Shown here: positions 32,688 through 54,767 of the stretch, piece by piece | Position numbering within the stretch: the first letter of the stretch is position 1 | How the letters are laid out: the number at the start of each line of letters is the position of its first letter | Assembly: GCA_965261595.1 (NCBI GenBank) | Contig: CBDHDG010000005.1 | Span: 32,001 to 96,000, forward strand | Reading direction: 5' to 3' | Source: a bacterium | GTDB taxonomy: Bacteria > UBA8248 > JACPRG01 > G963555815 | DNA: 64,000 bases | Program-made: the position numbers and the translations under genes | Notes under the pieces: generated by a model | The model's input: only the letters and a program-made list of their open reading frames with translations | Databases searched by the model: none | Told to the model about the DNA's origin: nothing

Positions 32688-32721
32688 AAAAAAAGGGCCA
32701 CGGGATTTCCCGTAGCCCTTT
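32688..32721 (-). terminator. Rho-independent terminator downstream of tRNA-Phe
   Basis: Minus strand AAAGGGCTACGGGAAATCCCGTGGCCC followed by a run of T. Confidence 0.8.
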
Positions 32722-32729
32722 GAATTTCA

Positions 32730-32805
32730 TGGTGCCGGGGGGCGGAATCGAACCGTCGACACATGGATTTTCAGTCCACTGCTCTACCGACTGAGCTACC
32801 CCGGC
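32730..32805 (-). tRNA. tRNA-Phe (GAA)
   Basis: GCCGGGGTAGCTCAGTCGGTAGAGCAGTGGACTGAAAATCCATGTGTCGACGGTTCGATTCCGCCCCCCGGCACCA: 76 nt, cloverleaf, CCA end. Confidence 0.98.
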
Positions 32806-32830
32806 ACCGTTTGTTTTTCAATGAGTTACA

Positions 32831-33823
32831 CTAACGGCCTTCCACTTGATAGGCGCTAGTGTCTGTTTTACTGCCTTCTGCGCCGTCAAGAAGCGCCACC
32901 GCCTGGGCCTTGTGACGGTCCGTCAGGTGCGAATACCGCATGACCATCCGCCTCGTCTTAGCGCCCCCTTGAAGCCTGTACGGATGCTCTGTATCGCCTC
33001 CCCGTCCTGGGGTCGACAGAACACAAATCCCCCGTCCAGACGGGTACGGGATGCTCTCCAATATCGCACGGGCCGTTGCGTTCAGTGGGACCGTCCGACC
33101 TTCACCGGACTTCGCCTCTCCGACTCTCAGATACCCCCCTCTGAGGTCCACATCTTGCCACTTCAGGCGAAATATCTCGCCCTGTCGAAGCCCTGTGTGA
33201 CGGGCGAAATCGTAAATCCGGCAGATGCGCGGGTGCATCTCGGCCCGAAGCCGTTCCCGTTCTTCCGGTTCCAGAATTCAGCAACGGGCGTTATTCTCCT
33301 TCAAAAATTTGACTTTGGCAACCGGGTTGCTTCCGGCCTTCCCGCCCTCAATGGCACGATTGAACAGCGTTTTCAAAAGCGCCAGTTCCCGGTTGACCGT
33401 CGCGGGTTTCTTCCCCTGGTCCAGCCTGTTCGTTTGGTAGCCGTGGACCATTTCCGGCGTGATGGCGTCCAGGTACAGGTCCCCAAAAGCGGGTAGAAGG
33501 GCCTTGATGCTGGCTTCATCCCGCTTCGCGGATTTCTTTCGGGCGGAATAGACGCGGGCATATTCCTCCCCGTACTGCCGAAACGTCACTCGCCGGACCA
33601 TCTTCTTGTCCAGATGCTTTCCTTCGGCGATCTCCGTCCTCCGCTTCCCCATCACGGTCACGGCCAGCCGCTTGTTCGGCCCGATCCATTCCCGGACCCG
33701 CCTTCCACCGGCGTAGTAATCCAAGAAATAATTGCCCTTGGTATCCTGGTGCACCCCAGGCGGGAGACGGAGGGCCTTTCGCTTGGATGACCCGCGCGAT
33801 TTCCGGGAGGTCGGTGCGTTCAT
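32831..33823 (-). pseudogene. Tyrosine recombinase/integrase, frameshifted and internally deleted
   Basis: SAM-like domain (PATVNRELALLK..FN.A), HTGLRQGEI and MVMRYSHL are present. Frameshift at ~33280; the HxLRH and LLGH boxes are absent. Confidence 0.88.
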
Positions 33824-34014
33824 GGCTTTTTCCTCCGTTTCTTAGGGCGTTTGGCCGTCCCCTCGGCCTCGCGGTCCAGGGCCTCGGCGATAAAGCGCCG
33901 GGCAACCGCCGAGACAGTTGATCGCTCTCGCTCCGCAATGGCCTCTAAATGCCGGGAGTCCTCGGCGCTCATCCGAAGATGGAAACCAACCTCATATCTT
34001 GTTTTACGCTTCAT
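33820..34014 (-). CDS. Ribbon-helix-helix (CopG-like) regulator, 64 aa
   Basis: FHLRMSAEDSRHLEAIAERERSTVSAVARRFIAEAL; stop overlaps the integrase ATG. Confidence 0.75.
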   Translation of the reverse strand: MKRKTRYEVGFHLRMSAEDSRHLEAIAERERSTVSAVARRFIAEALDREAEGTAKRPKKRRKKP

Positions 34015-34021
34015 GTAGAAC

Positions 34022-34050
34022 ACAATAGAATATTTAGCTACGGATGTCAA
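34022..34050 (-). promoter_or_regulatory. Sigma70-type promoter for the RHH-integrase unit
   Basis: TTGACA-17 nt-TATTGT, with the RHH ATG 7 nt after the -10 box. Confidence 0.7.
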
Positions 34051-34197
34051 CCGCCTTTCAACCTTTCAACGAATGATCTTGGCGGCGGTCTTGTTGCCCT
34101 CGATGTACCAGTTCCAGGCCCTCCACGTCGAATCGGAGGGGTTTCCCCAACTTCACCTTCGGAATGCGCCCCATGATGGCCCATTGGCGAACGGGCA

Positions 34198-34542
34198 GCG
34201 CGGTAAGGAGGGTGGGTAACCGCTGCGTAACCGCTGGGTAACCGCTAGGTGGTTACCTTTTTCGGCGGCCGGGGAGATCCGCTCAACCCGCGTCGTTGCA
34301 GGCTTTAGCGGTATCGGCGGGGGAGGAAGGCTGCGGGCGCTTACAGGGCATAACCGAAGTAACCGCATTTGTAAGGGGGGGGAGCCTATAGAATGTTGTC
34401 GGGGGGGCCACCTATCACCCCGTAGGCGTCCTCCTTGAATAGCAATAATCCATTTTAAAACAACTTGTTGCACTGAATCCATATGGGGCCCGAGTGCAAT
34501 TTATAGCCCCCTAGTCCCCCAAAGCGGTTACTTCGGTTACGG
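34198..34542. repeat. GTAACCG iteron-like repeats (putative replication origin)
   Basis: GGTAACCGCTGCGTAACCGCTGGGTAACCGCT, TAACCGAAGTAACCGC and the inverted GCGGTTACTTCGGTTAC lie just downstream of the primase gene. Confidence 0.65.
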
Positions 34543-34571
34543 CCAAGGGCGACGGGAGGGGTGGAAATTCC

Positions 34572-37240: not shown

Positions 37241-37457
37241 CGCCGCGCCCCCTTGCGGGACGCCGAGAGGCGGCGATAAAGGCGTCCACGTCCGAAATTT
37301 TAGACCGGACGGCCCCGCTGATCTTCACGTTAGGGATACGGCGCTGGTTCGTCCAGGCGCGTAAAGTCCATTCGGCCAGCCCGAGATACTCGGCCGCCTC
37401 CCGTGTGGTGAGAAGCCGACGGGTGGCGGGGCGATCGTTTTTCTTTTTGAGATCCAT
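37233..37457 (-). CDS. Excisionase-type HTH_17 DNA-binding protein
   Basis: LLTTREAAEYLGLAEWTLRAW...IPNVKISGAVR; GAGGAG RBS. Confidence 0.85.
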   Translation of the reverse strand: MDLKKKNDRPATRRLLTTREAAEYLGLAEWTLRAWTNQRRIPNVKISGAVRSKISDVDAFIAASRRPARGRGDD

Positions 37458-37497
37458 CGAAGTTCTCCTCAAAAAAAACCGCAGCGGGAAACCCCCC

Positions 37498-38757
37498 TGG
37501 ACTTACCCCGGTTTCGTGGAGAGTTAAGCACTTGGGTTTTCAGGGTGTGCGTTGTTGTCTCCTTTCGTAGTTAACGGGTGACAGGTTGTCGATGGAGGAG
37601 TGCCGACGATGCGGGTTGTAGAAGCCCTCGATGAACCCGAACACCTCCATGCGCGCCTCGGCCCGGGTGCGGAAACTGTGGCGAGCGAGGAGCTCGCACT
37701 CCAGCGTGGCGAAAAAGCTCTCACACAGCGCGTTGTCGTAGCAGTCCCCGACCGAACCCATGGAGGGACGCACGCCCGCCTGCCGGCAGCGCTGCCCAAA
37801 GGCGACCGAGGTGTACTGCGTGCCCTGGTCGGAGTGGTGGATGACGGCCCGGGGACGGCGCTTATACAGCGCCATGTCGAGCGCGTCGAGCACCAACTCG
37901 GCCCGCAGGTGTGTGGCCATCGACCACCCCACGATGCGCCGGCTGAACGCATCGAGCGCCACGGCCAGATACAAAAACCCCGCCCATGTCGGAACGTAGG
38001 TGATGTCGGCCACCCACAGCCGGTCGGGGGCCTCGGCCGTGAAGTTGCGGTCCACCAGATCAGGGGCCGGCCGCGCCTCCTGCCGGCGCTGCGTCGTGCG
38101 CGCTCCCTTGCGCCGACTGACGCCCGCAAGTCCCGCCCCACGCATCAGCCTGGCGACGCGCTTGCGGCCCACACGCACTCCCTCAGCCTCCAACTCGGCA
38201 TGGACGCGCGGCACGCCGTAAGTCCCCCGAGAACGCTCGTGGATCGCCTGAATGCGTTTGGTGAGCGCCCGATCGGCACACGAGCGGGCACACGGCGCGC
38301 GCCTGCGCCACGCGTAGTAGCCGCTGGAGGAGACGCCCAGCACCCGGCACATGGTGGCGGTCCGATACATGGCCTGGTTCGCCCTCACGAACCCGTAGAT
38401 CCGGACGGGATCGAATCGGTCTCCCGAGCAAACCAGGCCGCGGCTTTTGCTAAGATCTCCCGCTCCTGGCGGAGCTGTCGGTTCTCGCGGCGAAGTCGGC
38501 GCAACTCCTCCCGCTCATCGCTCGTGAGCCCGTCTTTGCGACGCCCCTCGTCAACGTCGGCTTGATGGGCCCAGGTGCGGATCGTCTGCGCCGAGGGCTC
38601 GAACTCGTGCGCCAGCGCCTCGGGCGTGCGTCCCGCCCGGACCAACTCTACCATCTGGCAGCGGAACTCCATTGGATAGCGTGGGTGAGTCTGTGGCATC
38701 GTGAACACCTCCTTTACCCCCAAATCATCAGGTGTCCACCAAACCGGGTCAACTCCA
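37498..38757 (-). mobile_element. IS3-family element B, copy 1 (1260 bp)
   Basis: TG...CA ends; orfA HTH; orfB motifs WVADITY, HHSDQG, DNALCES; A-AAA-G slip site in orfA. Confidence 0.95.
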
Positions 38758-39526
38758 CCCCTTTGAAATCAGGTCATCCAAGACAGGAACCAGCTGTTCA
38801 GTCCGTACCAATACTTCATCGGCGGATTGCCCCCATACTAGGCCGAGATAGCGAACCTGCGGTACTCCGAGCTCGAGTCGCAACTGTAGATCCTTAAGTT
38901 TTTGCTGGGCGCCGCCTGGGCTTAGCCGACCAATATCATCGTTCCAGAATGAAGTACCAGTGAAGACTAGGTAAATGCATCCCATCGCCAGAATAGCTAA
39001 TGAACTCCACTTAACCGTTCGTACCTGGTTCAACTGTATCACAAATCGAGGCAATTTTACGGCATTGGGTCCGACCCCTGGCCATAACAACAAAAGCGAT
39101 GGAACAACCCAGCGAGTGACTATGGCCGTCACAATTAACCCAGAGATCGCAAAAGTCCCAAGATGGATCAACCCTTCAAATCCGGCCAAGAGCAGCGCAG
39201 AAAAACCAACGCAAGTACTCATCGCGGCCATCCGAAGTGTTGGCCATATCCGTTGTAAGTGTGCCTCGATCCGTTTCGGCGTGTTAGCAACTGGTAGAAC
39301 AGCATGTATGGGGTAATCCACTCCTATCCCCATGAGAGCAACCCCAAATGACAGAGTTATTCCGTGGATTGAACCAAAGAGGAATGTAACTGCCGTGACT
39401 GCAGCCAATACTCCGGATACCAAAGGGACTGCAATAAGAACCAAGAGAGGCACTGAACGAAAGACCCATAGCAAAAATGCAGTAACGAGAATCGACCCCA
39501 TAACGGAAAATAACAATGCATCATCC

Positions 39527-42194
39527 TGGAGTTGACCCGGTTTGGTGGACACCTGATGATTTGGGGGTAAAGGAGGTGTTCACGATGCCACAGACTCACC
39601 CACGCTATCCAATGGAGTTCCGCTGCCAGATGGTAGAGTTGGTCCGGGCGGGACGCACGCCCGAGGCGCTGGCGCACGAGTTCGAGCCCTCGGCGCAGAC
39701 GATCCGCACCTGGGCCCATCAAGCCGACGTTGACGAGGGGCGTCGCAAAGACGGGCTCACGAGCGATGAGCGGGAGGAGTTGCGCCGACTTCGCCGCGAG
39801 AACCGACAGCTCCGCCAGGAGCGGGAGATCTTAGCAAAAGCCGCGGCCTGGTTTGCTCGGGATACCGATTCGATCCCGTCCGGATCTACGGGTTCGTGAG
39901 GGCGAACCAGGCCATGTATCGGACCGCCACCATGTGCCGGGTGCTGGGCGTCTCCTCCAGCGGCTACTACGCGTGGCGCAGGCGCGCGCCGTGTGCCCGC
40001 TCGTGTGCCGATCGGGCGCTCACCAAACGCATTCAGGCGATCCACGAGCGTTCTCGGGGGACTTACGGCGTGCCGCGCGTCCATGCCGAGTTGGAGGCTG
40101 AGGGAGTGCGTGTGGGCCGCAAGCGCGTCGCCAGGCTGATGCGTGGGGCGGGACTTGCGGGCGTCAGTCGGCGCAAGGGAGCGCGCACGACGCAGCGCCG
40201 GCAGGAGGCGCGGCCGGCCCCTGATCTGGTGGACCGCAACTTCACGGCCGAGGCCCCCGACCGGCTGTGGGTGGCCGACATCACCTACGTTCCGACATGG
40301 GCGGGGTTTTTGTATCTGGCCGTGGCGCTCGATGCGTTCAGCCGGCGCATCGTGGGGTGGTCGATGGCCACACACCTGCGGGCCGAGTTGGTGCTCGACG
40401 CGCTCGACATGGCGCTGTATAAGCGCCGTCCCCGGGCCGTCATCCACCACTCCGACCAGGGCACGCAGTACACCTCGGTCGCCTTTGGGCAGCGCTGCCG
40501 GCAGGCGGGCGGGCGTCCCTCCATGGGTTCGGTCGGGGACTGCTACGACAACGCGCTGTGTGAGAGCTTTTTCGCCACGCTGGAGTGCGAGCTCCTCGCT
40601 CGCCACAGTTTCCGCACCCGGGCCGAGGCGCGCATGGAGGTGTTCGGGTTCATCGAGGGCTTCTACAACCCGCATCGTCGGCACTCCTCCATCGACAACC
40701 TGTCACTGGACCGCCCCTGGGTTATTGGACACTCGGGTGAGGGTATTCGACCTCATGCGGCCTCCGCAACTTGAGCGAGTTTTTCCTGCCTTGCCTGGGC
40801 CGGCGTTCGGTAGCCGTAGCCCTCGAGAATCCAATGATGGTTGTACAGGTTCTTGAACTCAAGCAGCGCCCACCGCAGTTCCTCTACGGTGGCGAAAGAG
40901 CGCACCCACAGGAGATTCTCCTTCAAGATGCGGATAAACCACTCACAGTAGCCATTTCCCTCGGGCGCCCGCACGAAGCTGGGCGAACTGGTCATGCCCA
41001 GGTAGGTGATCTCCCGCTGAAAGTCATCGGACAGATAGGCGGGGCCGTGGTCGTGACGAACTTTAAGCCCCTCGGCGACGTCCGCCTCCAAGCCGGCGAA
41101 GCGCTCGGCGACCCCCTGCCGGATCGGCTCCAGGGCCTCGAAGCGGTTGCCGCTCTTGGCCGCATGGATCCCCACGCAGTCCACCGAGCAGTGATCCACC
41201 GCCACGAACACCGAGGCCACCCCCTCCTCGGTGGTCACCGTCGTCGTCATGTCCGTGCCCCACATTCGGTCGGGCCGCTCGGTGCGGATGGTCCCGTTGT
41301 GGGCCTTGGGACCTCGGGGTTTGCCCACCCGGTGGGGGGCCTGAAGCCCCGCCTCCCGCATCAGGCGACGCACCCGCTCCTTGCTGGTGCGGATGCCCGC
41401 GAAGCGCAGCCTCGCCCACACCTTGCGGTAGCCCTCGCCATGGAAGGGAGAGTCCTCCAGGACCTGCCGGATGTGGCCGAGGAGTTCCGCATCGGTGCAC
41501 GGGCCCACAGGGCCGTGCTTATTGGGCGTGGGGCGTTCATGAACGGGGACCGCCTCTCGCCGCCGTTGCGCGTAGACCGTGGAGCGCGCCAAGCCCCAAA
41601 GGGCGCACACCCGCTTCAGGCCGTAGGCTCTGCCCGTGGAGGTGAAGCGGGCCTGACTCATCGCCTCCACCTCCTGCCGGCTAAAGGGCGGCCGGCCTCC
41701 AGGCGGTCGATCTTCTCCCGCAGGACCTCGCCCTCCATCGTGAGTTCGCCCACCTTGGCCTTGAGCCGGGCGTTCTCCTCGTCCCGCTCATCCGCCGGGC
41801 GGGCTTTGAGCGCCGCCTCGCCCGCGCGAAGGAACGCCTCGCGCCAGGCGGAAAGCCGAGCCGCTGTCGTGCCCAACTCGCGGCAGAGCGTCTCCAGGCT
41901 CTCGCCCCGCAAAAGACGCAGGACCGCCTCCCGCTTGCGCTGGCAGGAGAACCGACCCCGCTCACTGCGATGCCCTGGGGCCTTGGCTCCGTTCGCCCTG
42001 CGGGCGCCCTCCGCCAAAGCCCCCTCTTGCTTTTGTTCGTTCATCGCGACACCCCTTTCTCCATGAATCATGGATCAATCGAGTGTCCAACAAAACCCTA
42101 GAGCGGGGGATCACCCGTTAACTACGAAAGGAGACAACAACGCACACCCTGAAAACCCAAGTGCTTAACTCTCCATGAAACCGGGGTAAGTCCA
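39527..42194 (+). mobile_element. IS3-family element B, copy 2 (interrupted by IS3-A copy 3)
   Basis: Same ends as copy 1; 3-bp TSD TCC at 39524-39526 and 42195-42197. Confidence 0.93.
40707..42110 (-). mobile_element. IS3-family element A, copy 3
   Basis: 1404 bp; 4-bp TSD TCAC, confirmed against the uninterrupted IS3-B copies. Confidence 0.95.
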
Positions 42195-42272
42195 TCCCGA
42201 ATTATGTTCCTTGTTTGAATGGCGACCACCGGTATCCCCGTAACAAACAATGTCATTTTTCGATCCTTATAT

Positions 42273-43940
42273 TCCGCATTTCCCATATGGATCATAAGTT
42301 TTGTCGGACCGAATGCCATTTTCTCGTGTAAGATCAAGGTGTTGGCCTCTCCCTGCCATCATCTTGCGAGGGGACCCAATGGGTGAAGCGAAGAAGGGGG
42401 CTTTGAAGATCCGTTTTGACCGTCGGCTGAGGCTTGAGTTTCACGGAACCAGAATCACTTCGGATGCGGGATTGCTGGCCTGCCGGGAGCTGGATGATGC
42501 GCTGGGTTTGACGGTGAGAGCGCCAGTGCAATTGCAAGAGATCCGTCATGGCCGGAACATCCAGCATGAGTTGGCGCCGCTATTGCGCCAGTCGGTCTAT
42601 AGCCGCTTGGCAGGGTATGAAGACACCAACGATGCCGAGCGGTTGGCCCAGGACCCCGCGATGCAAGCCGTGGTCGGCCGCCGAGCGCTTGAGAAGCAGG
42701 CGGCGGGCGCCAACACCCTGAGCCGGTTCGAGACCGAGGTTCTCACCAGGGAGGAGAATCTCAAGGGGCCGGAGCGAGCTGAACCGGGAGTGGGTGGACC
42801 GGGCCATGGCACACTCACCCCATCAGCGAATCATCCTGGACATGGACAGCTCGGAAAGCCCCGTCCATGGGGAGCAGGAAGGTACGGCCTACAACGGCCA
42901 CTTTCGTTGCACCTGTTATCACCCTCTTTTTTGCTTTAACCAGTTCGGGGACTGCGAAGGGGCGATGTTGCGCCCCGGCAACGTGCACAGCGCCGATGGC
43001 TGGCGCGAGTTGCTTTCGCCCATCGCGGCCCGGTATGAGCGGGCGGGTGTTCGCCGTTACTTCCGAGCCGATGCCGCCTTTGCGCGCCCGGAGGTTTATG
43101 AGTGCCTGGAAGCGCACAGCTTCCATTACGCCATCCGCCTTCCCGCCAACGACGTGGTGCAGCGAGAGATCGACTTCCTCCTCACCCGCCCGGTCGGTCG
43201 CCCGCCCAAGAGACCCATCATCTTCTATTACGACTTCCGGTATCAGGCTGGAAGCTGGGACCGTTCCCGGCGGGTCGTGGCGAAGGTGGAATGGCACTCA
43301 GGCGAACTCTTCCCTCGCGTCGGATTCATTGTCACGAACCTGACGGCTCGACCCGAGGGGGTCGTGCACTTCTACAACCAGCGAGGCACAGCCGAGCAAT
43401 GGATCAAGGAAGGCAAGTACGCCCTGAACTGGACACGCCTTTCCTGTCACCGGTTCGTGTGCAACCAGGTGCGGCTCCTTCTCTTCGTCCTGGCGTACAA
43501 CCTGGGCAATTTCCTGCGCAGGCTAGCCTTGCCCAGGGGGCTCAAGCACTGGTCGCTGCGAAGCCTCCAGGTCAAGCTCATCAAAATGGGCGGGAGGATT
43601 GTGCGGCACGCCCGGCAGATCATCTTTCAATTGGCCGAAGTAGCGGTATCCAGGGAAGAGTTCGCCATCATCCTGGACCGAATCAACCGATTACGGCCGG
43701 TGCCGGTCTAACCTTGTGCAGAGGGTTCCCGGCAGCATGAGGTGATTGGTTAACGGGTTGAACCGCGAATAAAGGGGACCGAAGGGCGAGGGTCCGCCTT
43801 TTGGGGCAGTCGATGGCCGTCAGCACCTTGTTGCGGAGGGTTGGAAGGCTCTTGACAGACCCATCGGAAGGGGGTCAACTGGTTTTCATCGGGAAAGGGG
43901 ACCGGAAACCACCCAAGCAAGTTGATATGGGAAATTCCGG
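42273..43940 (+). mobile_element. IS1380-family element, full length, transposase frameshifted near 42770
   Basis: IRL TCCGCATTTCCCATAT, IRR ATATGGGAAATTCCGG; motifs LDMDSS, RADAAF, YNQRGTAEQWIKEGK. Confidence 0.92.
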
Positions 43941-43954
43941 TTTGATCACATAAT

Positions 43955-44904
43955 CCCGCATTTCCCATATGGATGATAATTTTTAACGCCCCGAAGGCCG
44001 TTTTCTCGTGTAAAATCAAGGTGTTGGCCTCTCCCTGCCATCATCTTGCGAGGGGACCCGATGGGTGAAGCGAAAAAGAGGCCGTTGAGGCTCCAATTCG
44101 ACGGTCGGCTCAGGCTGGAGTTTCACGGAGCAAAGGTTACGAGTGACGCCGGTTTGCTTGCCTATCGTGAACTGGATGAGGTGTTGGGGCTGACGAAGGC
44201 GGCCGAGGGGTTTCTGTCCGATTCACGGACGGGCGGGAACACCCGGCACAGCCTCACCGCTTTGGTGCGCCAGTCGGTCTACAGCCGCCTGGCAGGATAT
44301 AAAGACACCAATGATGCCGAGCGGCTCTGTGTCGATCCCGCCATGCGTCAGGTGGTTGGGGGGCGAGCGAAGTATCACACCGCTGCCTCCACCAGCCAGA
44401 TGAGCCGATTCGAGACGCAGACCCTCACCCGGCCCCTTAACCCCTCAAGGCGCTGAGCGGTCTGCCCGGTGTGTTGGTGGATCGTGTCCGCAAACGCAAG
44501 CCGATTCGCAAGCTGATCCTGGACATGGACAGTTCGGTCAGCCCGACCCACGGTGAGCAGGAAGGCTCTTCCTACAACGGCCACTTCGGCTGCACCTGCT
44601 ATCACCCACTGTTTTGCTTCAACCAGTTTGGCGATCTGGAGCGGGCGCTGTTGCGCAACGGCAAGGTCCACAGCGCTGATGACTGGTGGTCTGTATTGGA
44701 GCCGGTGGTAGCTCGCTACCGGGATGCGAAGGTCTGTCGGTTTTTTCGAGGCGACGCGGCATTTGCCAAGCCGGAGGTGTACCGATACCTTGAGGCGGAG
44801 GGCTACTCCTATGCGATTCGGCTTCCGGCCAACGCCATCTTGTACAGGGACATCGAATGCCTTCTGACCCGGCCGGTTGGCCGACCGCCCAAAAGGCCCA
44901 TTAT
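43955..44904 (+). mobile_element. IS1380-family 950-bp 5' partial copy, tandem duplicate of the next element
   Basis: Appears identical to 44905-45854, including the same frameshift. Confidence 0.9.
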
Positions 44905-46599
44905 CCCGCATTTCCCATATGGATGATAATTTTTAACGCCCCGAAGGCCGTTTTCTCGTGTAAAATCAAGGTGTTGGCCTCTCCCTGCCATCATCTTGCG
45001 AGGGGACCCGATGGGTGAAGCGAAAAAGAGGCCGTTGAGGCTCCAATTCGACGGTCGGCTCAGGCTGGAGTTTCACGGAGCAAAGGTTACGAGTGACGCC
45101 GGTTTGCTTGCCTATCGTGAACTGGATGAGGTGTTGGGGCTGACGAAGGCGGCCGAGGGGTTTCTGTCCGATTCACGGACGGGCGGGAACACCCGGCACA
45201 GCCTCACCGCTTTGGTGCGCCAGTCGGTCTACAGCCGCCTGGCAGGATATAAAGACACCAATGATGCCGAGCGGCTCTGTGTCGATCCCGCCATGCGTCA
45301 GGTGGTTGGGGGGCGAGCGAAGTATCACACCGCTGCCTCCACCAGCCAGATGAGCCGATTCGAGACGCAGACCCTCACCCGGCCCCTTAACCCCTCAAGG
45401 CGCTGAGCGGTCTGCCCGGTGTGTTGGTGGATCGTGTCCGCAAACGCAAGCCGATTCGCAAGCTGATCCTGGACATGGACAGTTCGGTCAGCCCGACCCA
45501 CGGTGAGCAGGAAGGCTCTTCCTACAACGGCCACTTCGGCTGCACCTGCTATCACCCACTGTTTTGCTTCAACCAGTTTGGCGATCTGGAGCGGGCGCTG
45601 TTGCGCAACGGCAAGGTCCACAGCGCTGATGACTGGTGGTCTGTATTGGAGCCGGTGGTAGCTCGCTACCGGGATGCGAAGGTCTGTCGGTTTTTTCGAG
45701 GCGACGCGGCATTTGCCAAGCCGGAGGTGTACCGATACCTTGAGGCGGAGGGCTACTCCTATGCGATTCGGCTTCCGGCCAACGCCATCTTGTACAGGGA
45801 CATCGAATGCCTTCTGACCCGGCCGGTTGGCCGACCGCCCAAAAGGCCCATTATCTTCTACCACAGCGTCTCCTATCAGGCGGCTAGTTGGGAGAAGCCT
45901 CGCCGGGTGGTGGTGGCGGTCGAGTGGCACCAGGGCGAGTTGTTTCCAAGAGTCAGCTTCATCGTGACCAACCTGCACTGGCGGGAAGAGAACGTCGTGA
46001 GGTTCTACAACCAGCGTGGGACGGCGGAGCAGTGGATCAAGGAGGGCAAGTACGCCCTGAACTGGACGCGCCTGTCCTGCCACGGCTTTGAAGAGAACCA
46101 GGTCCGCTTGCAACTATTTGCCTTGGCGTACAACCTGGCAAACTTCCTGCGGCGGCTGGCGTTGCCCAGAGCGGTGAAGCACTGGTCGCTGACGACGTTA
46201 CGCGAGAAGCTGATTAAGATTGGGGCCAAGGTGGTCACCCACGCCCGGCACACCACCTTCCAGATGGCCGAGGTGGCCGTGCCGCGTCAACTGTTCAGGG
46301 CAATCCTTGAACGAATTCGACGGTTGTGGTTACCGCCTCCCGTACCAGATACCGGATGACGGAGCAGATGGCCCGGAAGCTTAGTGACGTGGTGGAGACG
46401 GGGGATCAGTCTGTGCCGAACTCCCCTGAGTGTGCCGGTAGAGCTGGGTTTTCAAGGGATTGCGGCTTTAGGACGGCCGTTGCCCCTCGATTGAGCAGAG
46501 GGTTCTGCAAAGAGACCCTGAATCTGTAGTAAAATGGGGTACTTTGATGACACAGGAGGACCGCAGGATGGCTAAGAGTGGTCATCTGGGAAATCCCGG
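44905..46599 (+). mobile_element. IS1380-family element, full length, frameshift near 45390
   Basis: IRL CCCGCATTTCCCATAT, IRR ATCTGGGAAATCCCGG; transposase split into two ORFs. Confidence 0.92.
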
Positions 46600-46816
46600 T
46601 TTAAATCAAGACAACTCTTGTATTGACCACCCGTTGCTCTTTAACTCAATTAGAGCCCTCTTTACCGGGGCTGTCAACACCATTTCGGGCGCCTGAAACC
46701 CTGATCGGAGCGGTATCCGCCATTGGAAAACCATGTCAGCGCCGGCGTGTAAACGGGCTTGACCACCAGGTTTGGAGTCTTCGTCATTTTGCCCTTGTGT
46801 GGACTCCGCTTAGGGT

Positions 46817-47208
46817 CGCTAGACAGGCACCGGGCATCATCGCTTGATTCTCTCCAAGATAAGGGCAAATGTCTTCCTGGATACACCGACCTCGGCCAAC
46901 TGGAAGGTGATGTGGCGGGCGTACCGCACGAGCCGGCCGCCCATTTTGAGGAGCTTAAGCTGAAGGCCGCGTAACGACCAGTGCTTGATCCCTCTCGGCA
47001 GGCCAGCAATCCCGCATCCGAAGTCATTCTGGTTCCGTGAAACTCAAGCCTCAGCCGACGCTCAAAACGGACCTTCAACGCCCACTTTTTCGCTTCACCC
47101 ATTGGATTACCCCGCGAGAGGATGGCTCGGGGAGGCTCATGCATTGATTTTACTCCAGAAAATGTCCTCCGGTCCGACAAAAGTTATGATCCATATGGGA
47201 TATCTGGG
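46817..47208 (-). mobile_element. Internally deleted IS1380 derivative
   Basis: IRL-like CCCAGATATCCCATAT; the N-terminus ([10 protein letters not shown]) is joined at ~46995 directly to the C-terminus (KHWSLRGLQLKLLKMG...). Confidence 0.8.
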
Positions 47209-47408
47209 ATAATGTTAGCATTATGCGCATTCTGACTCTACCAGGGCCCAAAGGGGAATTGCGTCTCCAACGGTCGGGGAAGGCCGCTCACTCTCGCTCT
47301 CGAGGGGGACGGAAAAGGGAGGATGTCACAATGTACCGAAAGATCATGACCGTTTTGCTGGCTTTAGGTTTTCTGGGTAAATAAGGGTTTGGGACAAAGG
47401 AGATAGTT

Positions 47409-47639
47409 ATGTCGAAGGTACTTTTGAGTCTTGTCCTGCTTGGTGTCGTAGGCCTTACTGGTTGTGCCAGTAAAGCCGGTCCCTTTGTTACGAACATTAG
47501 TAGCGATGGGCGCGGCGGGATTGTCATAGAGAAATGCATGGTGCGCCTGGATCGGACGATCAATACAGTAGAGGCGTCGGATTGCACCAACACGAGCATC
47601 CGATTGACGCGCCCACCAGAAACTGGAAAGCAACCCTAG
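47409..47639 (+). CDS. Small lipoprotein (76 aa)
   Basis: AAGGAG RBS, hydrophobic signal peptide, lipobox LTGC, two further Cys. Confidence 0.75.
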   Translation: MSKVLLSLVLLGVVGLTGCASKAGPFVTNISSDGRGGIVIEKCMVRLDRTINTVEASDCTNTSIRLTRPPETGKQP

Positions 47640-48839
47640 CCTAGATGTAGGTCCACGGCCAGCTCGTTTTCTGGTTCGCCGCCAGTTGGTTGAATTTCAG
47701 GAAGCGGCCCCTGCGCCCGTTCGTACTTCAAGGGCAACGGCCCCTGCCGCCGCCGGCGCGCCACGTCCCTGAGCAAGTCCCTGACGGACCGGACAGCCTC
47801 AAACGCTTCCCGTTCTTCCTGGTGACGCTCACGCTTCCGCTCACAGGCACCCTCCGTCCCCAGCTCAACCGTCAGGGTGTCCAAGTCGCGCACCAAGGCC
47901 TTGAGCCGCCTACCGTCCCGTTTCACCAGGCCAACAGCCTCGAGGGCCAGGACGTTCTTTCGTTCTGTGTCCCGACACCGCCCCGTAAGACGGGCCAGGG
48001 CCGCCAGGCTTCGCACTTCACCCTCATTCAAGAGCGTGTCCCACGTACTTTCAGCACTTCGCGGTAACCTCTCCCGAAAAGCGTCGTGCCGCCCACACCG
48101 CCGAATAGTGGGACAGTCTTGCCTCACGTTTTTTGGGGTATTAGGGGTTGTCTTTGGGGTATATTCCTCAAACTTCTTCCTTATTAGGCCTAGATCGTGC
48201 TGAAGAGAGTCTATGACAAATGGCCGACTACGTACCTCCGCAACGAATATGGTACTTCTTCTATCTTTCGAAAACCAAACCCCGTCATGTCTCTGCAATT
48301 CATTGCCAACGCTCATATTCTTCATCACCTGTAAGAACTCTCCACTTGGATCGTTGGCAAAGTAACGCTTCTGGAGTATTCCGCGAGATGACGATAACCC
48401 CTTAACCTGTCTTTCCAAGGATTCCCGTAACCCCCTCGCAGTAAAGCTCCCTCCTTTAACACCGGGACTGAGGAGATAACGATTCCTAAAGAGAAAAGAT
48501 ATGTCGTCTTGGATGAACCCAGCCTCACCGTTGAGGATTTGTACAAACCGACCGCTCGCCATCAGATCCCTAGCCATTCTTTTATTCAATCTCGCGAGCG
48601 ATTCCGCATTATCCTCATTCATTGATACCAACATTGTCCTTGACCCATTACCTTCTCTAAGTAGCAACAATAATAGCCTGTCTTGAGCGTTCGAACCATT
48701 TGGCAGAAATATAGAAAAATCGGTCACTATTTTACCTTTCATCACAACTCCCCATCCAGCTAAACCGATAAAGCCAAGCCACAATAATATAATAAGCTTT
48801 CTTTCTGACCCTCTTTTACTCATTACTTAAATTCATTAT

Positions 48840-49400
48840 AGTCCGATCTCCAGTCCTTTCTATGTACTGGAATTCTCAATTTTCACATTAGCCCCCATGA
48901 GAAATATTGTCTTTAAGAAGAGATTCAATCTCCAACTCTTTGGGGGTATGTTTATTTCCCCCAATCAAAAGATCCAGCTATTTCCTATTTATAATTACGC
49001 TGAAGGGCCTCTAAATCGCCATCTATTGTCTTTAGCAAGCCCTCCACTGCACCTTTTATAGGAGGCAAGGATTTAAGATTTTGTTTATCTGACCTTTCAT
49101 CATTCTCGATTACTACCTCCCTTTCTAAGATCGTTACCTCCCCCTTATACGGTTTAACCGTCATCTTAGTAATCTTTCCAGATGCCTTATAAGTTAGTGT
49201 CCCTTGAATCATGAGTGCCTTATCAAGGGCAGAAAGGTATCTCATTTCAAGAAAGTTAGCTTCTTCACATCTTAGCTTGGGACAACTCTGTCCGAAATAT
49301 GCCTAAAGTGATTGCCATGGTGTGATTTGATTGGCGACGGCCCCTCTCGGCAACATTAACGACCGATTAGAAAAGCGGCATCCTAATTCCAGATAGGTCA
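48840..49400 (-). pseudogene. LolA-like lipoprotein-carrier protein (aryl-polyene cluster type), degraded
   Basis: FLEMRYLSALDKALMIQGTLTY...GDLEALQRNY then an internal stop at 48985; position fits the cluster order. Boundaries approximate. Confidence 0.55.
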
Positions 49401-49433
49401 AATACCATCTTTGTATGAGCATGGGATCTCCCT

Positions 49434-50323
49434 CTATTCTTTCCAAAACTTGTAGAAATTGAACCAGTTATAGGGAGCCATACGGCAATATTCTTCAAGT
49501 CTCCGGACATATTGCCGAACAAGAGCCGCGAATTCAACCTCACGCATCCCCTTAAGCTTCTGAGGTTCATTCACTAAGGGTTCAAAATAGATTTTATAGC
49601 GATTTCCACCCATATAAAGTCCGAAGAATATAAAGATTGGTAAGCGTAGAGTGGAGGCTAGTCGGTAGGGGGAGACAGGAAAGGATGTCGGACTCCCGAG
49701 GAATTCCAATTCTATAGTGTCACGATCATTAAAGACCCGATCTCCAAGAATTCCAACAATGCCCCCTCCCGTCGAATCTCCGTTAACCCGAGGAGAGAAT
49801 TTGCTGTTCCAATCGGGATTATTTGCTCTGCCATCTCTGCATTAAAACCTTCCAAGCGGCGGGATATCTTTCTTGCTTCGTCTTCAACCATAAGCATATA
49901 GATCTTGATATTCTGCCTTGTCATTCCAAGTACTCGCACAATCTCGAAGCTTCCAAGATGGGACCCCAACAAAATACATCCGCCAGATTCTTTGAGACAC
50001 TCAAATAATGCCTCCTCTCCTTCAGTTGTCACCTGAAACTCCTTGTATCTGCCACTCCAAAAGAATATCCGATCTAGAATTGTACTTCCAAACGTATGAA
50101 AATGGCGATACAAGTGCGTACATCCAATTGATTCCCCGAGGACTTTGTAAAGGAATTCCCGTGACGCCTGACGCGCTTTCCTTTCCAGGATGAGGTAATA
50201 GAATACTATGAATGGCAGGAAGGCTCGGGAAGCATTGCGCCCAAATGTGAGACTGAGGCACGCATAGAGGCGCATTAATATAGAACTGCCCCGCTCCCGC
50301 TGATTTATCCAGGCTTTAGCCAT
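49434..50323 (-). pseudogene. LpxL-like acyltransferase, frameshifted near 49770
   Basis: Motifs WINQRERG, LLGSHLGSFE, EFLG..FP..P, LE..C..APYNWFNFYKFW. Confidence 0.82.
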
Positions 50324-50663
50324 GGGTTCTAGAGTCCAGGTTCTGATTCTTTCCATAGCGACAAATCGCTACAAAAATCTTGCTATTATTAACCAAACCC
50401 TCAATCCGAACAATCGAATCTGTCAGTTGAGTAATACTTAGATCTACGGTTTCATCCGGGCGCAATGGTCGGACGAACTTTGCAGATTCAAGGACTGGAA
50501 GGTGGGGGTCGAATTCTCCTCCTTTCTCTAGGCGAACAATGATTTCGTCAAGAATTACTGCACCTGGGACAAGGGGATTCTCTGGGAAGTGACCAGAAAG
50601 AGAGGCATGACTAGAGGAAATACGAATACTGGAATTCGTTGAGTTATCCCGCCTCGGTCTCAT
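50316..50663 (-). CDS. FabZ/hot-dog-fold dehydratase (ApeI-like)
   Basis: Motifs H.SLSGHFPENPLVPGAVILD and KFVRPLRP. Confidence 0.8.
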   Translation of the reverse strand: MRPRRDNSTNSSIRISSSHASLSGHFPENPLVPGAVILDEIIVRLEKGGEFDPHLPVLESAKFVRPLRPDETVDLSITQLTDSIVRIEGLVNNSKIFVAICRYGKNQNLDSRTHG

Positions 50664-50678
50664 CGCTAGAAAGCTCGC

Positions 50679-51545
50679 TCATGGGGCGCTGTTGATTAGC
50701 TTTAATAGCTCGTCACGGGAGATCTTACCGGTTTCATTCATAGGTAAGGAGTCGATAAAGTATATCCGACGAGGGATAAACGCGGCGTCGAGCCTATTGG
50801 ATAGTGCTTCTATAATGGTGCTGGGCGCTACATTTGGCGCTACAACCACTGCCTCAAGCCGCCCTAACTCTCGATAATCCGAGCGTTGTTGAATAAAGCA
50901 CCCATCCTGGACTCCAGGAATCTCGTTTAGATGGCAGTTAAGATTTCCTAACGATTCCCTTTTGCCTGCGATCCTAATCATGGAGGACAGGCGGTCTCCT
51001 AACAGGAGGGTCTTCTCTGATTTCGGCTCAATATTATCCATCAACGGAATTGTTTCCGGGAGGTATGGAGCTTGAACAACACATCGGTCTCCATCTCCCA
51101 GGATCCGTACGTCATCAAGGAGATGCCACAATTTCCCATCCGAGGTCCTGCGGACCGCGAGTGATCCTGCTTCAGTACATCCATATATTTCGTAAACATT
51201 CGTATTGAACTGGGTTTCAGCTTTTCGGGACAAATCAAGACTAAGATGATCGGTCGCGGAGATGACAATTTCCAGATCAGGTAGAGGGAGTTTCGCCTTT
51301 AAAAGGATGTTTAAATAATGCGGCGTCGTTACAAATACCCGTGGTGGAGGTATATGGGAGAGAGCCTTTTGGACATCTTTTGGGTAGTAAGGGCGCTTAA
51401 AATAAAAGGTAGATCCTGTTTGCAAAGGAAGCATTATGCCAACTTCCAATCCATACATATGCTGAGCAGGGACTGTTGCGATGTAGTTATAACGCAGTGT
51501 CTGATTCAACTGCAACGATTCTGCTGTGCTCTTTGCTACCTGGAC
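50679..51545 (-). pseudogene. AMP-binding acyl-CoA/ACP synthetase (ApeH/XanA2-like), 5'-truncated by IS3-B
   Basis: Motifs ATVPAQHMYGLE, VTTPH, EIYGCTEAG, IAGKRESL, LPMNETGKI. Confidence 0.82.
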
Positions 51546-52805
51546 TGGAGTTGACCCGGTTTGGTGGACACCTGATGATTTGGGGGTAAAGGAGGTGTTC
51601 ACGATGCCACAGACTCACCCACGCTATCCAATGGAGTTCCGCTGCCAGATGGTAGAGTTGGTCCGGGCGGGACGTACGCCCGAGGCGCTGGCGCACGAGT
51701 TCGAGCCCTCGGCGCAGACGATCCGCACCTGGGCCCATCAAGCCGACGTTGACGAGTGGCGTCGCAAAGACGGGCTCACGAGCGATGAGCGGGAGGAGTT
51801 GCGCCGACTTCGCCGCGAGAACCGACAGCTCCGCCAGGAGCGGGAGATCTTAGCAAAAGCCGCGGCCTGGTTTGCTCGGGAGACCGATTCGATCCCGTCC
51901 GGATCTACGGGTTCGTGAGGGCGAACCAGGCCATGTATCGGACCGCCACCATGTGCCGGGTGCTGGGCGTCTCCTCCAGCGGCTACTACGCGTGGCGCAG
52001 GCGCGCGCCGTGTGCCCGCTCGTGTGCCGATCGGGCGCTCACCAAACGCATTCAGGCGATCCACGAGCGTTCTCGGGGGACTTACGGCGTGCCGCGCGTC
52101 CATGCCGAGCTGGAGGCTGAGGGAGTGCGTGTGGGCCGCAAGCGCGTCGCCAGGCTGATACGTGGGGCGGGACTTGCGGGCGTCAGTCGGCGCAAGGGAG
52201 CGCGCACGACGCAGCGCCGGCAGGAGGCGCGGCCGGCCCCTGATCTGGTGGACCGCAACTTCACGGCCGAGGCCCCCGACCGGCTGTGGGTGGCCGACAT
52301 CACCTACGTTCCGACATGGGCGGGGTTTTTGTATCTGGCCGTGGCGCTCGATGCGTTCAGCCGGCGCATCGTGGGGTGGTCGATGGCCACACACCTGCGG
52401 GCCGAGTTGGTGCTCGACGCGCTCGACATGGCGCTGTATAAGCGCCGTCCCCGGGCCGTCATCCACCACTCCGACCAGGGCACGCAGTACACCTCGGTCG
52501 CCTTTGGGCAGCGCTGCCGGCAGGCGGGCGTGCGTCCCTCCATGGGTTCGGTCGGGGACTGCTACGACAACGCGCTGTGTGAGAGCTTTTTCGCCACGCT
52601 GGAGTGCGAGCTCCTCGCTCGCCACAGTTTCCGCACCCGGGCCGAGGCGCGCATGGAGGTGTTCGGGTTCATCGAGGGCTTCTACAACCCGCATCGTCGG
52701 CACTCCTCCATCGACAACCTGTCACCCGTTAACTACGAAAGGAGACAACAACGCACACCCTGAAAACCCAAGTGCTTAACTCTCCACGAAACCGGGGTAA
52801 GTCCA
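51546..52805 (+). mobile_element. IS3-family element B, copy 3 (1260 bp)
   Basis: Near-identical to 37498-38757, in inverted orientation; no TSD. Confidence 0.95.
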
Positions 52806-53184
52806 GTCCGGCTGGAAGACCTAGCTAGAGACACTTCCGGATCGTGACCGACCTGGGACCGCGTGAGGTTCCGAAGCGGAGAGAAAAGGGGCCCCGGACA
52901 GGGGGGTCGATGGGTTGCCGCTGTTCGAACAAGAAGACGAACAGCAATTGAGGGACGAACCCGAAAGCCGTTAAGCGGAGAGCCAGGGAGAGCTGTACCC
53001 TCCGGGGTGCGGGGAAGGCGAGTTCTGCGGTAAACGGTGCCAAGCGTCAGGTGTCTGTTTTAGTGTCTATTGGAGGTGCAAAAGCACCCTTATTCATACA
53101 AAATGACACAAAGGGCAGATTGCCGAAAATCCTTGTCCTGTCTACGATTGTGCCTATTGACGCGGATTTCCGGGAGCGTTCAGG

Positions 53185-53229
53185 ATGGATTTTCAGTCCA
53201 CTGCTCTACCGACTGAGCTACCCCGGCAC
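53185..53229 (-). repeat. att repeat: displaced 5' half of tRNA-Phe
   Basis: Identical to 32763-32807 (positions -2 to 43 of the tRNA); no T-arm or CCA follows. Confidence 0.95.
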
Positions 53230-53322
53230 ACACCCTTCAAGTGCGCGTCCCGCCCTTTCGGCTCTCGCAAGGCAGGGAACAAGCACATTCTCCATTCCCC
53301 GATGGGGTTGCCGAAACACCGG

Positions 53323-53350
53323 ATTCTATCACAAACACCTTATTACGCAA
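53323..53350 (-). promoter_or_regulatory. Putative native tRNA-Phe promoter
   Basis: Minus strand TTGCGT-16 nt-TAGAAT with an extended TG, ~95 nt upstream of the tRNA 5' half. Confidence 0.55.
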
Positions 53351-53680
53351 TTCGGCCGGATGGCGCAAGAAAAGGTGACTCCGGGGTGGGTTGATTGGGA
53401 CCATAACGCTTGGCTTCACCCCCGAATTGTGGATGATCCGCATGCCCGCACAGGAGACGGGGGAGGAAGCCGCGGCCGGTCCCGGCGACTGGGTGCATGC
53501 GCCCGTGGTTGAAGGTTCATGGACGGATTTTGAAAGCGTTTACGTTTCGGCCCCCTCTGAAGAAGTGGATCCGAAGAAAATATTGTATGCTTCCAAGACG
53601 CTTGCCGGAGTGACGGTTCAAATGGAGGATGACGCCCCAATTTTTTCTGCGCGGTCGTTCTCGATGGAGGCCAGACGAAG

Positions 53681-54697: not shown

Positions 54698-54767
54698 ATC
54701 GGGATGGCGGGCTTGCGGCCGGAAAGCCGCCTGGCCCGGCGGACCCGCCAAGCGCCGGAGAGAGGTC

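Follow-up and report, generated by a model that had tools for sequence, protein, structure and literature searches.

A reverse-orientation tRNA island with a broken integrase lies between the sole tRNA-Phe gene of a bacterial assembly and its candidate native promoter

An island that comes to lie between a tRNA gene and its former upstream DNA raises the question of how the two were parted and from where the gene is now transcribed. This question is posed by the window analysed here, a stretch of 64,000 nucleotides from one bacterial contig, in which ARAGORN finds a single tRNA, a tRNA-Phe(GAA) on the minus strand (32730-32805) with 69.5 bits against the Rfam tRNA model. A repeat search of the window detects a direct repeat of 45 nt with 100% identity (32763-32807 / 53185-53229), each copy scoring E = 2e-21 in blastn-short and no further copy longer than 11 nt being found in the window by that program. 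Read along the tRNA, the repeat begins 2 nt ahead of the mature 5' end and stops at tRNA position 43, taking in the acceptor 5' strand together with the D arm and the entire anticodon arm, that is, the 5' part of tRNA-Phe; the earlier note, made from the sequence alone, had described it as the 5' part through the anticodon arm, and the exact extent of 45 nt (-2 to +43) confirms this. The two copies bracket an island of 20.4 kb; the 5' fragment shares the strand of the intact gene and stands 20.4 kb upstream of it. The region of the displaced fragment (53168-53227) scores 33 bits against the Rfam tRNA model and is not called by ARAGORN. A full tRNA-Phe has been restored, its 5' part identical in sequence to the displaced fragment. 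Along the direction of the tRNA the order is native promoter, 5' fragment (attL, 53229-53185), island, integrase, tRNA-Phe (attR, 32805-32730) and native terminator, a hairpin also present in the same-genus genome G001 (Table 1).

Table 1. Features of the island and its flanks in window coordinates
Feature	Position	Strand	Remark
Intrinsic terminator	32692..32721	-	13-pair stem and T run, directly 3' of tRNA; native host DNA
Intact tRNA-Phe(GAA)	32730..32805	-	Sole assembly copy; part of attR; chimera, positions ~1-37/43 from island copy, remainder native
Repeat copy 1	32763..32807	-	att core within attR, tRNA -2 to +43
Tyrosine integrase pseudogene	32831..33823	-	Int_N/SAM-like N-terminal part and catalytic-domain remnant
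Arm-type repeat pair AGGCAG-N6-AGACAC	32859..32876	-	In integrase tail; first unit degenerate
Promoter-like site TTGCCA-17-GAGAAT	33293..33321	-	Inside integrase pseudogene; 487 nt before tRNA
Small ribbon-helix-helix (rhh)/Arc-like gene	33820..34050	-	Upstream of and overlapping integrase start
Promoter-like site TTGACA-17-TATTGT	34022..34050	-	10 of 12; in front of rhh-int
DUF927-like protein, 720 aa	34572-36734	-	Replication-type
Prim-Pol/primase fragment	36554-37078	-	Replication-type
Insertion-sequence nest	37497..47220
IS3-family copy A	37497-38757
RND-transporter fragment	38749-39552
IS3-family copy B	39527-40706 + 42111-42199		Two pieces
Other IS3-family element	40753-41670 (transposase)		Splits copy B
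IS1380-family copies	~42270-47220		Three direct, partly broken copies and an inverted piece
Cargo remnant	47636..51602	-	Low GC (44-47%)
IS3-family copy C	51546..52806	+	100% identical to copy A
Arm-type repeat pair AGACAC-N6-AGACAC	53051..53068	-	Other attP arm
Repeat copy 2, displaced 5' fragment of tRNA-Phe	53185..53229	-	attL; joined to native upstream DNA
Native tRNA-Phe promoter candidate TTGCGT-16-TAGAAT	53323..53350	-	95 nt before fragment 5' end
Conserved host gene, 377 aa	53618..54751	-	Without family match

The whole assembly (6.17 Mb, completeness 96.7%, contamination 5.6%) contains 52 tRNAs by ARAGORN, one of which is tRNA-Phe, and a blastn search of all 7 contigs with tRNA-Phe returns the full gene and the 43-nt fragment only; the genome-wide count proposed in the earlier note has thus left a single copy. 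One full tRNA-Phe gene each is likewise found in the relatives G002, G003, G004 and G005. An assembly artefact is an unlikely source of the arrangement, because the junction of integrase and tRNA recurs in the same-genus genome L013 and in the metagenome contig L071. The arrangement very probably goes back to a site-specific insertion of an island of integrase/RHH/primase type upstream of tRNA-Phe, which was later immobilised and whose DNA would now carry the promoter of the gene.

The integrase pseudogene reads from 33823 to 32831 and stops 26 nt short of the tRNA-Phe 5' end on the same strand, which bears out the claim that the element lies upstream of the intact tRNA. Comparison with G001 and G005 maps three lesions: an in-frame TGA (33278-33280), an additional G in a G-run near 33042, a position at which contigs from other runs have one letter fewer, and a 112-nt deletion at ~32952 that takes out both HxxR and LGH. 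Of the other catalytic elements, the regions of R (TGLR) and K (AKSG) are kept, and the Tyr motif (RYSHL) stands in a different frame. A complete R-K-HxxR-H/W-Y set in one open frame, carried by two G005 homologues, is absent from the window integrase, in which the PF00589 fragment left corresponds to profile positions 28-80 of 172. The loss of catalytic boxes noticed earlier is therefore real, and, judged by these lesions, the integrase is dead and the island immobilised. The window genome yielded no second integrase belonging to its clade, and no circular or joined form of the island was seen in the contigs of four runs. The rhh gene, with a probable ATG near 34014, matches phrog_3431 (E 5.5e-4), and its G001 counterpart matches RHH_1/RHH_7.

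Arm-type repeats accompany both att sites. The attR-side pair overlaps the integrase tail and lies 54 nt before the tRNA-Phe 5' end; intact AGACAS-N-AGACAS pairs occur 53-54 nt before the tRNA in G001, two elements of G005, and G003. The attL-side pair lies within the island, 117 nt from the att core (1 match vs 0.02 expected), and is found at 117-122 nt from the core also in G001, G005-Phe and G005-Leu. Paired arm repeats at these distances (53-54 nt before the tRNA, 117-122 nt beyond the core) are present at 8 distinct att ends in all, and the attL arms of four elements can be aligned over ~165 nt.

Thirty integrase loci were examined in the phylum. The usual convergent layout is seen in 12, at Glu, Met, Arg, Gly, Ala and Leu tRNAs and tmRNA; 11 have no tRNA nearby; and in seven the integrase is followed by the tRNA on the same strand at 16-206 nt, the metagenome contig L071 being an eighth such case. 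Five of the seven form one clade with support 100/100, which includes the window integrase and all members of which have the integrase and then the tRNA on one strand. Clade members have as att core the anticodon stem-loop of a Phe, Leu or Arg tRNA. Fragments of tRNA 5' parts, which the earlier note had proposed to seek beside integrase homologues, turned up in four of the five elements that were checked, among them that of the window; among four elements searched in relatives, the fragment lies upstream within 40 kb in three and on another contig for the remaining one, G005-Phe. In six of the seven reverse-layout loci an A/T-rich block with a TTGA core stands 10-20 nt before the tRNA (CTTC in G005-Phe), and in the two G031 elements the repeat takes in 10-16 nt of this upstream block.

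Relatives of another family possess the empty arrangement of upstream gene, promoter and tRNA-Phe. In G012 and G024 a homologue of the 377-aa gene is followed directly by a complete tRNA-Phe, and in RNA run X15 one contig has a full tRNA-Phe adjoining 30 letters that match window 53230-53259 exactly; an empty site joining the flanks, which the earlier note had proposed to look for, is thus found. On this comparison the 377-aa gene is the ancestral upstream neighbour of tRNA-Phe and the side from 53230 onward is ancestral upstream DNA. The genus itself showed no empty site. G004, in which a 377-aa homologue precedes a full tRNA-Phe, was considered as an empty site and rejected for the 40-nt integrase remnant that lies 176 nt before its tRNA-Phe (blastn-short E 2e-9).

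The island interior has been invaded by at least 7 IS copies and pieces, IS3 copy C being inserted ~380 nt from the attL end. The cargo remnant contains unknown ORFs of 395 and 214 aa, a LolA-like fragment, a FabZ-like fragment and a truncated acyl-CoA-ligase-like gene. A 72-aa ORF at the attL end (52825-53043) is without family match.

The native promoter candidate is composed of TTGCGT (53350-53345) and TAGAAT (53328-53323) with a 16-nt spacer and is identical in G001. The coordinates given for it in the earlier note, which had it pointing at the half-tRNA, are exact, and the empty-site relatives G012 and G024 agree in having promoter-like sites at 90 and 97 nt from tRNA-Phe on its 5' side. 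The promoter scan makes no call here, because the -35 hexamer matches only 3/6. From the order of promoter, island and gene it follows logically that the sole tRNA-Phe would now be transcribed from island DNA. The scan of 2 kb gives 3 sites vs 0.7 expected, so that a single promoter-like site is weak evidence, and it makes no call in the last 480 nt before tRNA-Phe. The site at 33293-33321 is a candidate promoter of tRNA-Phe; it is identical in G001 and L071, has a variant in G003 and is held within the 40-nt integrase remnant of G004. It is missing from both intact G005 integrases (GTCGTA ... GAGAAC there) and is therefore no general solution for mobile members of the clade. The site at 34022-34050 is a second candidate, from which transcription might read through into tRNA-Phe. 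No terminator-grade hairpin was found between the candidate promoters and tRNA-Phe, the single call being a 5-pair stem. RNA-run contigs cover 32907-33279 at a depth of 2-3 only, possibly DNA carry-over.

These features suggest the following course of events. The island would have recombined site-specifically into the anticodon stem-loop of the chromosomal tRNA-Phe, the gene sequence copied in its attP having been the 5' part (-2 to +43) and not the 3' part, and for this reason the island would lie upstream of the reconstituted gene. A transcript starting from 33321-33293 or 34050-34022 would then read through the integrase pseudogene, RNase P would cut it at the tRNA-Phe 5' end, and the native terminator would stop it.

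That the half-tRNA is instead a relic of tRNA duplication or a pseudogene, with 20 kb of IS-loaded chromosome and no site-specific integration, might be suggested by the broken integrase and an interior made up mostly of IS elements and gene fragments. This is hardly credible and already contradicted by the flanks joined in empty-site relatives; moreover, the end of the repeat lies a few nt from the anticodon arm, as it does in other elements of the clade, the integrase abuts the full tRNA-Phe copy, and conserved arm repeats stand beside both copies at clade-typical distances. Two known modes of integration were also rejected. In an SSV-type event attP lies inside the integrase gene, and integration would leave its two parts at opposite island ends; here the C-terminus with RYSHL and the stop codon lies upstream of the att core, and neither the ORFs nor the stop-to-stop frames at the attL end include anything integrase-like. 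In tRNA-dependent lysogeny, as described in the available part of PMC10865867, integration destroys the tRNA gene and the element brings its own tRNA; here the full tRNA-Phe is restored, not destroyed. As to the age of the insertion, a single old event inherited genus- or family-wide, the interior being remodelled later by IS activity, tandem insertions and deletions, is a tentative possibility somewhat short of even chances, and the island end would then have served long as the upstream region of tRNA-Phe. The same integrase-tRNA junction in G001, the rhh-int identity there of 84-90% at the DNA level vs 92-96% in the host flanks, the same host gene adjoining attL in G005, the integrase remnant kept in G004 and a weak N-terminal integrase match 66 nt before tRNA-Phe in G002 (tblastn E 0.023) speak for it. 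Against it, the G001 integrase carries a 30-nt in-frame loss and a tail frameshift, with no lesion common to the window genome (G000), whose interior shares nothing detectable with that of G001 beyond rhh-int and the att arms; the two G005 integrases look intact and mobile, the second element residing at tRNA-Leu; and independent repeated hits on a hot spot fit equally well.

It is improbable that tRNA-Phe is expressed independently of the island, from a second, unassembled gene or from a promoter, weak or of non-sigma-70 type, within the ~50 nt that precede the tRNA (the A/T-rich TTGAAAAACAA block). The incomplete assembly, the recurrent TTGA-core block and its inclusion in the G031 repeats would favour this, but tRNA-Phe is single-copy in the four relatives counted above, no -10/-35 pair is called in those ~50 nt, and the TTGAAAAACAA block in the window is itself island DNA, so dependence on the island would remain. 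Equally improbable is a design in which integrase and target tRNA are co-transcribed and selection keeps the tRNA promoter of a dead island. Clade integrases do extend to 12-60 nt before the tRNA without a terminator between. RNase P cleavage at the tRNA would then set the 3' end of the integrase mRNA, and in attP/attL a 'mini-tRNA' without a T arm, composed of the 5' fragment and, 8-10 nt past the anticodon arm, an island-encoded complement of the acceptor 5' strand, may take the same RNase P role. After the death of the island, selection on the essential single-copy tRNA would maintain a promoter within the integrase pseudogene, which would account for the last integrase piece of G004 carrying TTGCCA-17-GAGAAT.

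The site-specific insertion favoured here makes the locus a "reverse-orientation" tRNA island, a minority but documented polarity. Zhao and Williams (2002) reportedly described such an island in Mesorhizobium loti. Like that island, the window island displaces the 5' part of the tRNA and not the 3' part, and therefore, placed on the 5' side of the restored gene, has to provide the DNA upstream of it; it differs in its host, which belongs to a small, mostly uncultured phylum, in its sole tRNA-Phe as target and in its dead integrase. The novelty implied by the earlier note does not hold: 5'-side integration has been documented since 2002, and Table 1 of Islander (Hudson, Lau and Williams 2015, PMC4383910) lists 159 5'-fragment vs 3760 3'-fragment islands among 3919. 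The 5'-fragment class resembles the window in having a fragment that precedes the full tDNA and is oriented like it, a tyrosine integrase inside and an anticodon-centred crossover; it demands a recognisable integrase domain, of which the window retains a PF00589 fragment only (PMC4383910). The islands of PMC6563490 (2019) share the minority polarity, but their hosts are archaeal and their integrase families different, and in the available part of its text an integrase pseudogene does not figure as a source of promoters. The established view of tRNA-site integration stands. What the locus adds is a concrete consequence of the minority polarity, namely that an essential single-copy tRNA would depend on the remains of a mobile element and, as the island appears unable to excise, would be permanently parted from its own promoter. 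It also adds a series for asking how such dependence is resolved over time, from the intact elements of G005 through the dead integrases of G000 and G001 to the 40-nt scar of G004, and an integrase clade with a mapped attP, consisting of an anticodon core and paired AGACAC arms at 54 nt and ~117-122 nt. With classical 3'-side tRNA islands and prophages the window shares a tyrosine integrase with arm-type sites, its gene at the edge beside the intact tRNA, and a crossover in a symmetric tRNA stem-loop; unlike in these, the block of identity extends from the crossover in the 5' direction, so that the native promoter, not the terminator, is parted from the gene.

An exact direct repeat of 45 nt (32763-32807 and 53185-53229; repeat search, blastn-short E 2e-21 for each copy) frames the interval, and no further copy longer than 11 nt was found in the window by blastn-short. 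On the tRNA strand it starts 2 nt before the mature 5' end of the tRNA-Phe gene (position -2) and stops at position 43, immediately beyond the anticodon arm, so that the earlier note was right to call it the 5' part of that gene. Genome-wide counting, which the same note had proposed, gave one tRNA-Phe among the 52 tRNAs identified by aragorn in the whole assembly (7 contigs, 6.17 Mb, completeness 96.7%, contamination 5.6%); blastn of the tRNA against the assembly agrees, returning the full gene, a 43-nt fragment and no more. The coordinates of the features are collected in the table.

Table. Features of the tRNA-Phe island and of related elements; positions are those of the window unless a locus or a tRNA fragment is named.
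Feature	Position	Strand	Remarks
Native terminator	32721-32692	minus	strong; directly after tRNA-Phe
tRNA-Phe(GAA)	32730-32805	minus	aragorn; Rfam tRNA 69.5 bits; sole tRNA gene in the window
Next integrase ORF	32831-33238	minus	PF00589 match limited to profile positions 28-80 of 172
Degenerate arm pair	32859-32876		in the integrase tail; one unit now AGGCAG
Integrase N-terminal part	33278-33823	minus	Int_N / SAM-like domain matches
Candidate promoter TTGCCA-17-GAGAAT	33321-33293	minus	inside the integrase pseudogene
Small Arc/ribbon-helix-helix (rhh) gene	33820-34050		upstream of the integrase; counterpart in G001
Candidate promoter TTGACA-17-TATTGT	34050-34022	minus	before rhh-int
IS3-family element, three copies	37497-38757; 39527-40706 plus 42111-42199; 51546-52806		up to 100% identical over 1261 nt
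Putative attL mini-tRNA regions	53168-53227 (-); L013 4114-4175; L070 about 8030-8098 (-); L055 14100-14165		window and three loci of relatives
G005-Leu 5' fragment	positions 1-38		5.8 kb away
G031-Arg 5' fragment	-10 to +39		20 kb away
G031-SeC 5' fragment	-16 to +39		25 kb away

The displaced fragment is preceded by a 377-aa gene (53618-54751, minus), whose homologues in two genomes of a different family of the same class (G012 and G024) have a complete tRNA-Phe in the same orientation as their direct downstream neighbour. Promoter-like sites, TTGACG-17-TAGAAT and TTGTAA-17-TATAAA, lie 90 and 97 nt before these tRNAs. The window counterpart, TTGCGT-16-TAGAAT, stands 95 nt before the fragment at 53350-53323, exactly where the native promoter had been placed, and is identical in G001, a genome of the same genus; the promoter scan makes no call there because the -35 hexamer of the site matches at 3/6. 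In a metatranscriptome run (X15), one 204-letter contig contains a full tRNA-Phe, with 5 differences from that of the window; at 32807 it continues into an overhang of 65 letters, of which the printed 30-letter consensus is identical to 53230-53259. Its downstream flank is unlike that of the window. The contig is the empty-site form of the locus in a related organism. From the gene order and promoter positions in G012 and G024 and from the join in X15, all of which connect tRNA-Phe to DNA of the 53230 side, DNA from 53230 onward can be identified as native upstream DNA and DNA from 32808 onward as that of the island; 32808-33800 is not ancestral. The polarity of the element and the ancestral arrangement are thereby established: as the earlier note had argued, and as the repeat, the position of the integrase and the relatives with the empty arrangement all show, the island lies upstream of the intact tRNA and the native promoter has been left at the far end.

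A tyrosine integrase gene lies directly upstream of the intact tRNA-Phe on the same strand, ending 26 nt from the tRNA 5' end. Its lesions were mapped by alignment with the homologue in G001 (L013) and two intact homologues in G005, a genome of another genus. These are an in-frame TGA at 33278-33280 (CAA in G001), an additional G within the G-run near 33042 that shifts the frame, with one letter fewer there in contigs of two other runs, and a deletion of 112 nt at about 32952, through which the HxxR and LGH boxes are gone, as had been noticed from the sequence. The Tyr motif MRYSHL is kept, out of frame. The integrase is dead, and no integrase of the same clade was found elsewhere in the genome: identity is 32-44% for its other matches, and both of those available as loci belong to a clade of usual orientation. 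An SSV-like split integrase was ruled out, as the C-terminus and stop codon come before the core and nothing integrase-like is found at the attL end, that of the displaced fragment.

Upstream of rhh and the integrase are a 720-aa DUF927-like protein and a Prim-Pol fragment, followed by a nest of insertion sequences. One of the three copies of an IS3-family element is split by another IS3-family element, and IS1380-family elements occur as three direct copies, partly broken, plus an inverted piece. One IS3-family copy is 380 nt from the attL end, and transcription from the native tRNA promoter would enter it in antisense. Cargo remnants lie at 38749-39552 and at 47636-51602, the latter a stretch of disrupted lipid-type genes with a low GC content (44-47%). 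They comprise HpnN-like RND transporter, LolA2-like, FabZ-like and 4-coumarate/acyl-CoA-ligase-like fragments and look like what IS elements have left of a lipid cluster of the aryl-polyene or flexirubin type. Taken as a whole, the interval between the repeats resembles an integrase/RHH/primase-type island that is old and has decayed heavily.

At the same site in G001, a 43-nt 5' fragment adjoins the same host gene and is followed by a 7.4-kb island with cargo different from that of the window (a formamidase fragment, FGE-sulfatase-like, TPR/CsgG and DUF1989), ending in rhh and a 403-codon integrase ORF that stops 12 nt before a full tRNA-Phe. Identity between the two is 92-96% in the host flanks and 84-90% in rhh-int, and the remaining island interior gave no blastn match. 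The integrase of G001 is open, but 10 catalytic-domain residues are missing and its tail is frameshifted. The same 10-residue loss, with a further frameshift, is seen in L071, a metagenome contig that is nearly identical. Integrase decay is thus under way in the species of G001 too, and none of its lesions recurs in the window. In G005, the 5' fragment lies by the same host gene on contig 1, and the integrase with the full tRNA-Phe is on contig 2, suggesting that related elements, or else att sites, have undergone a large rearrangement with one another. This two-contig genome (1.42 and 0.66 Mb) carries the half-tRNA-Phe with arm repeats at 974054-974097 and the integrase with full tRNA-Phe at 160910-162141 (L070, L042), and possesses also a 92%-identical integrase at tRNA-Leu. 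In a further genome, G004, all that BLAST detects of the island at the site is a 40-nt integrase remnant (L007 2759-2798; 90% identity, blastn-short E 2e-9) whose end lies 176 nt upstream of tRNA-Phe, and no 5' tRNA-Phe fragment is found in the genome. Since this remnant is kept, the site is a scar and not an empty one. Blastn-short of the G004 spacer against the native promoter region of the window gave nothing significant; a TTGCGA-16-GATAAT sequence 387 nt upstream of the tRNA looks like the native promoter on inspection alone and was not used as evidence. The 5' side of tRNA-Phe in this bacterial family is either a recurrent target, struck by separate elements, or the seat of one old insertion.

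The G001 integrase, used as query against the 51 genomes of the phylum, gave 32 matches at E <= 1e-20, of which 30 were fetched as loci; two matches from the window's own genome are without locus and outside this count. The usual convergent layout, with the integrase facing the 3' end of a tRNA or tmRNA, was found in 12 of the 30 loci, and 11 have no nearby tRNA. In the other seven, aragorn placed a tRNA (Phe three times, Leu-CAA once, Arg-CCT twice, SeC once) 16-206 nt after the integrase on the same strand. Five of these seven (window, G001, G005 twice, and G003) form one clade with 100/100 support in the ML tree of the 30 sequences, while the two from G031 have an unresolved position outside it, and polarity requires at least two changes on this tree. 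A 5' tRNA fragment, for which the earlier note had proposed to check, was found upstream within 40 kb in three of the four same-strand elements searched in relatives; that of the fourth, G005-Phe, is on the other contig. A wider search of genome contigs returned nine loci, with G001 itself the one close member, and that of metagenome contigs two short contigs; no clade members were found among the viral contigs searched. With 41-43% identity to the query, integrases L028 (G049) and L029 (G046) are placed among tRNA-targeting relatives (99/99), yet the next 1.2-1.5 kb or so downstream of them contain no tRNA. The tRNA-Arg(CCT) of G003 carries a reverse-orientation integrase remnant (L048), and a 46-nt 3' fragment of the same tRNA (98% identical; contig 17, L075, 30356-30401, near the contig end) is a sign of a usual-orientation element there.

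Every 5' fragment ends in or just after the anticodon arm, which places the predicted crossover in the anticodon stem-loop, with the identity block 5'-ward. The paired repeat AGACAS-N(4-7)-AGACAS has one match in the window (53051-53068, minus; 0.02 expected) and among 70 loci searched is confined to att ends of clade members. In G001, G005-Leu, G005-Phe and G003 a copy sits within the integrase tail, 53-54 nt before the tRNA. At the attL of the window, G001, G005-Leu and G005-Phe a copy lies 117-122 nt past the core, and the attL arms of these four elements are alignable over about 165 nt. The attL of the G003 Arg element was searched for and not found. Most simply, these pairs are putative arm-type binding sites of the integrase, and their presence at both ends shows that the window interval has the genuine ends of one kind of element. 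The displaced fragment with the next 17 nt of island DNA scores 33 bits against Rfam tRNA (gathering score 29). In four of four clade attL sites an island strand complementary to the acceptor 5' strand GCCGGGG lies 8-10 nt after the anticodon arm, perfect in G005-Phe (CCCCGGC), with one G-U in G005-Leu and 6/7 in the window and G001; together they would form a T-arm-less 'mini-tRNA'. The acceptor strand is identical in all four, leaving no covariation to read, and the complement is absent from the two G031 elements (Arg, SeC), which are outside the tight clade.

The sole tRNA-Phe gene would have to be transcribed from island DNA. No sigma-70-like site was called by the promoter scan in the last 480 nt before the tRNA, and none in the last 160 nt in either the window or G001; a TTGAC in the integrase tail was rejected as a -35, coming from Leu-Leu-Asp codons and having no -10 partner. 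Between the two candidate promoters farther upstream and the tRNA, one weak 5-pair hairpin was called and nothing else. G001 and L071 carry the intragenic site unchanged, G003 carries a variant, and the 40-nt remnant of G004 contains it; both intact G005 integrases lack it. This pattern, in a small sample of related members, is compatible with a promoter that was retained, or came into being, in immobilised copies; that this site is the tRNA-Phe promoter is a tentative proposal, somewhat short of even chances. As the general mechanism we favour transcription that would read through from an island promoter and then be processed by RNase P at the tRNA. In Logan contigs of two RNA runs, 32808-32875 is uncovered and the pseudogene is covered to depth 2-3, too thinly to speak for or against co-transcription. 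A contig of a DNA sequencing run (X10, record 4; 32778-32912) falls one letter short of the bridging rule, with 30 on the repeat side, and was left uncounted.

The interest of this system lies in a sole-copy tRNA tied to a dead island, in an integrase clade with reverse polarity in five of five members and attP mapped, and in a decay series across relatives. The arrangement itself is not new, contrary to what the earlier note had implied: Krupovic et al. (PMC6563490), in a passage citing Zhao and Williams 2002 and four archaeal studies, already document integration at the 5' side of tRNA genes, and Islander (PMC4383910), by its description, has the 5'-fragment configuration as part of its filter and lists, among 3919 islands, 159 with a 5' fragment and 3760 with a 3' fragment. 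The window island belongs with the 5'-fragment class of Islander as described there, and not with the 3'-fragment majority.
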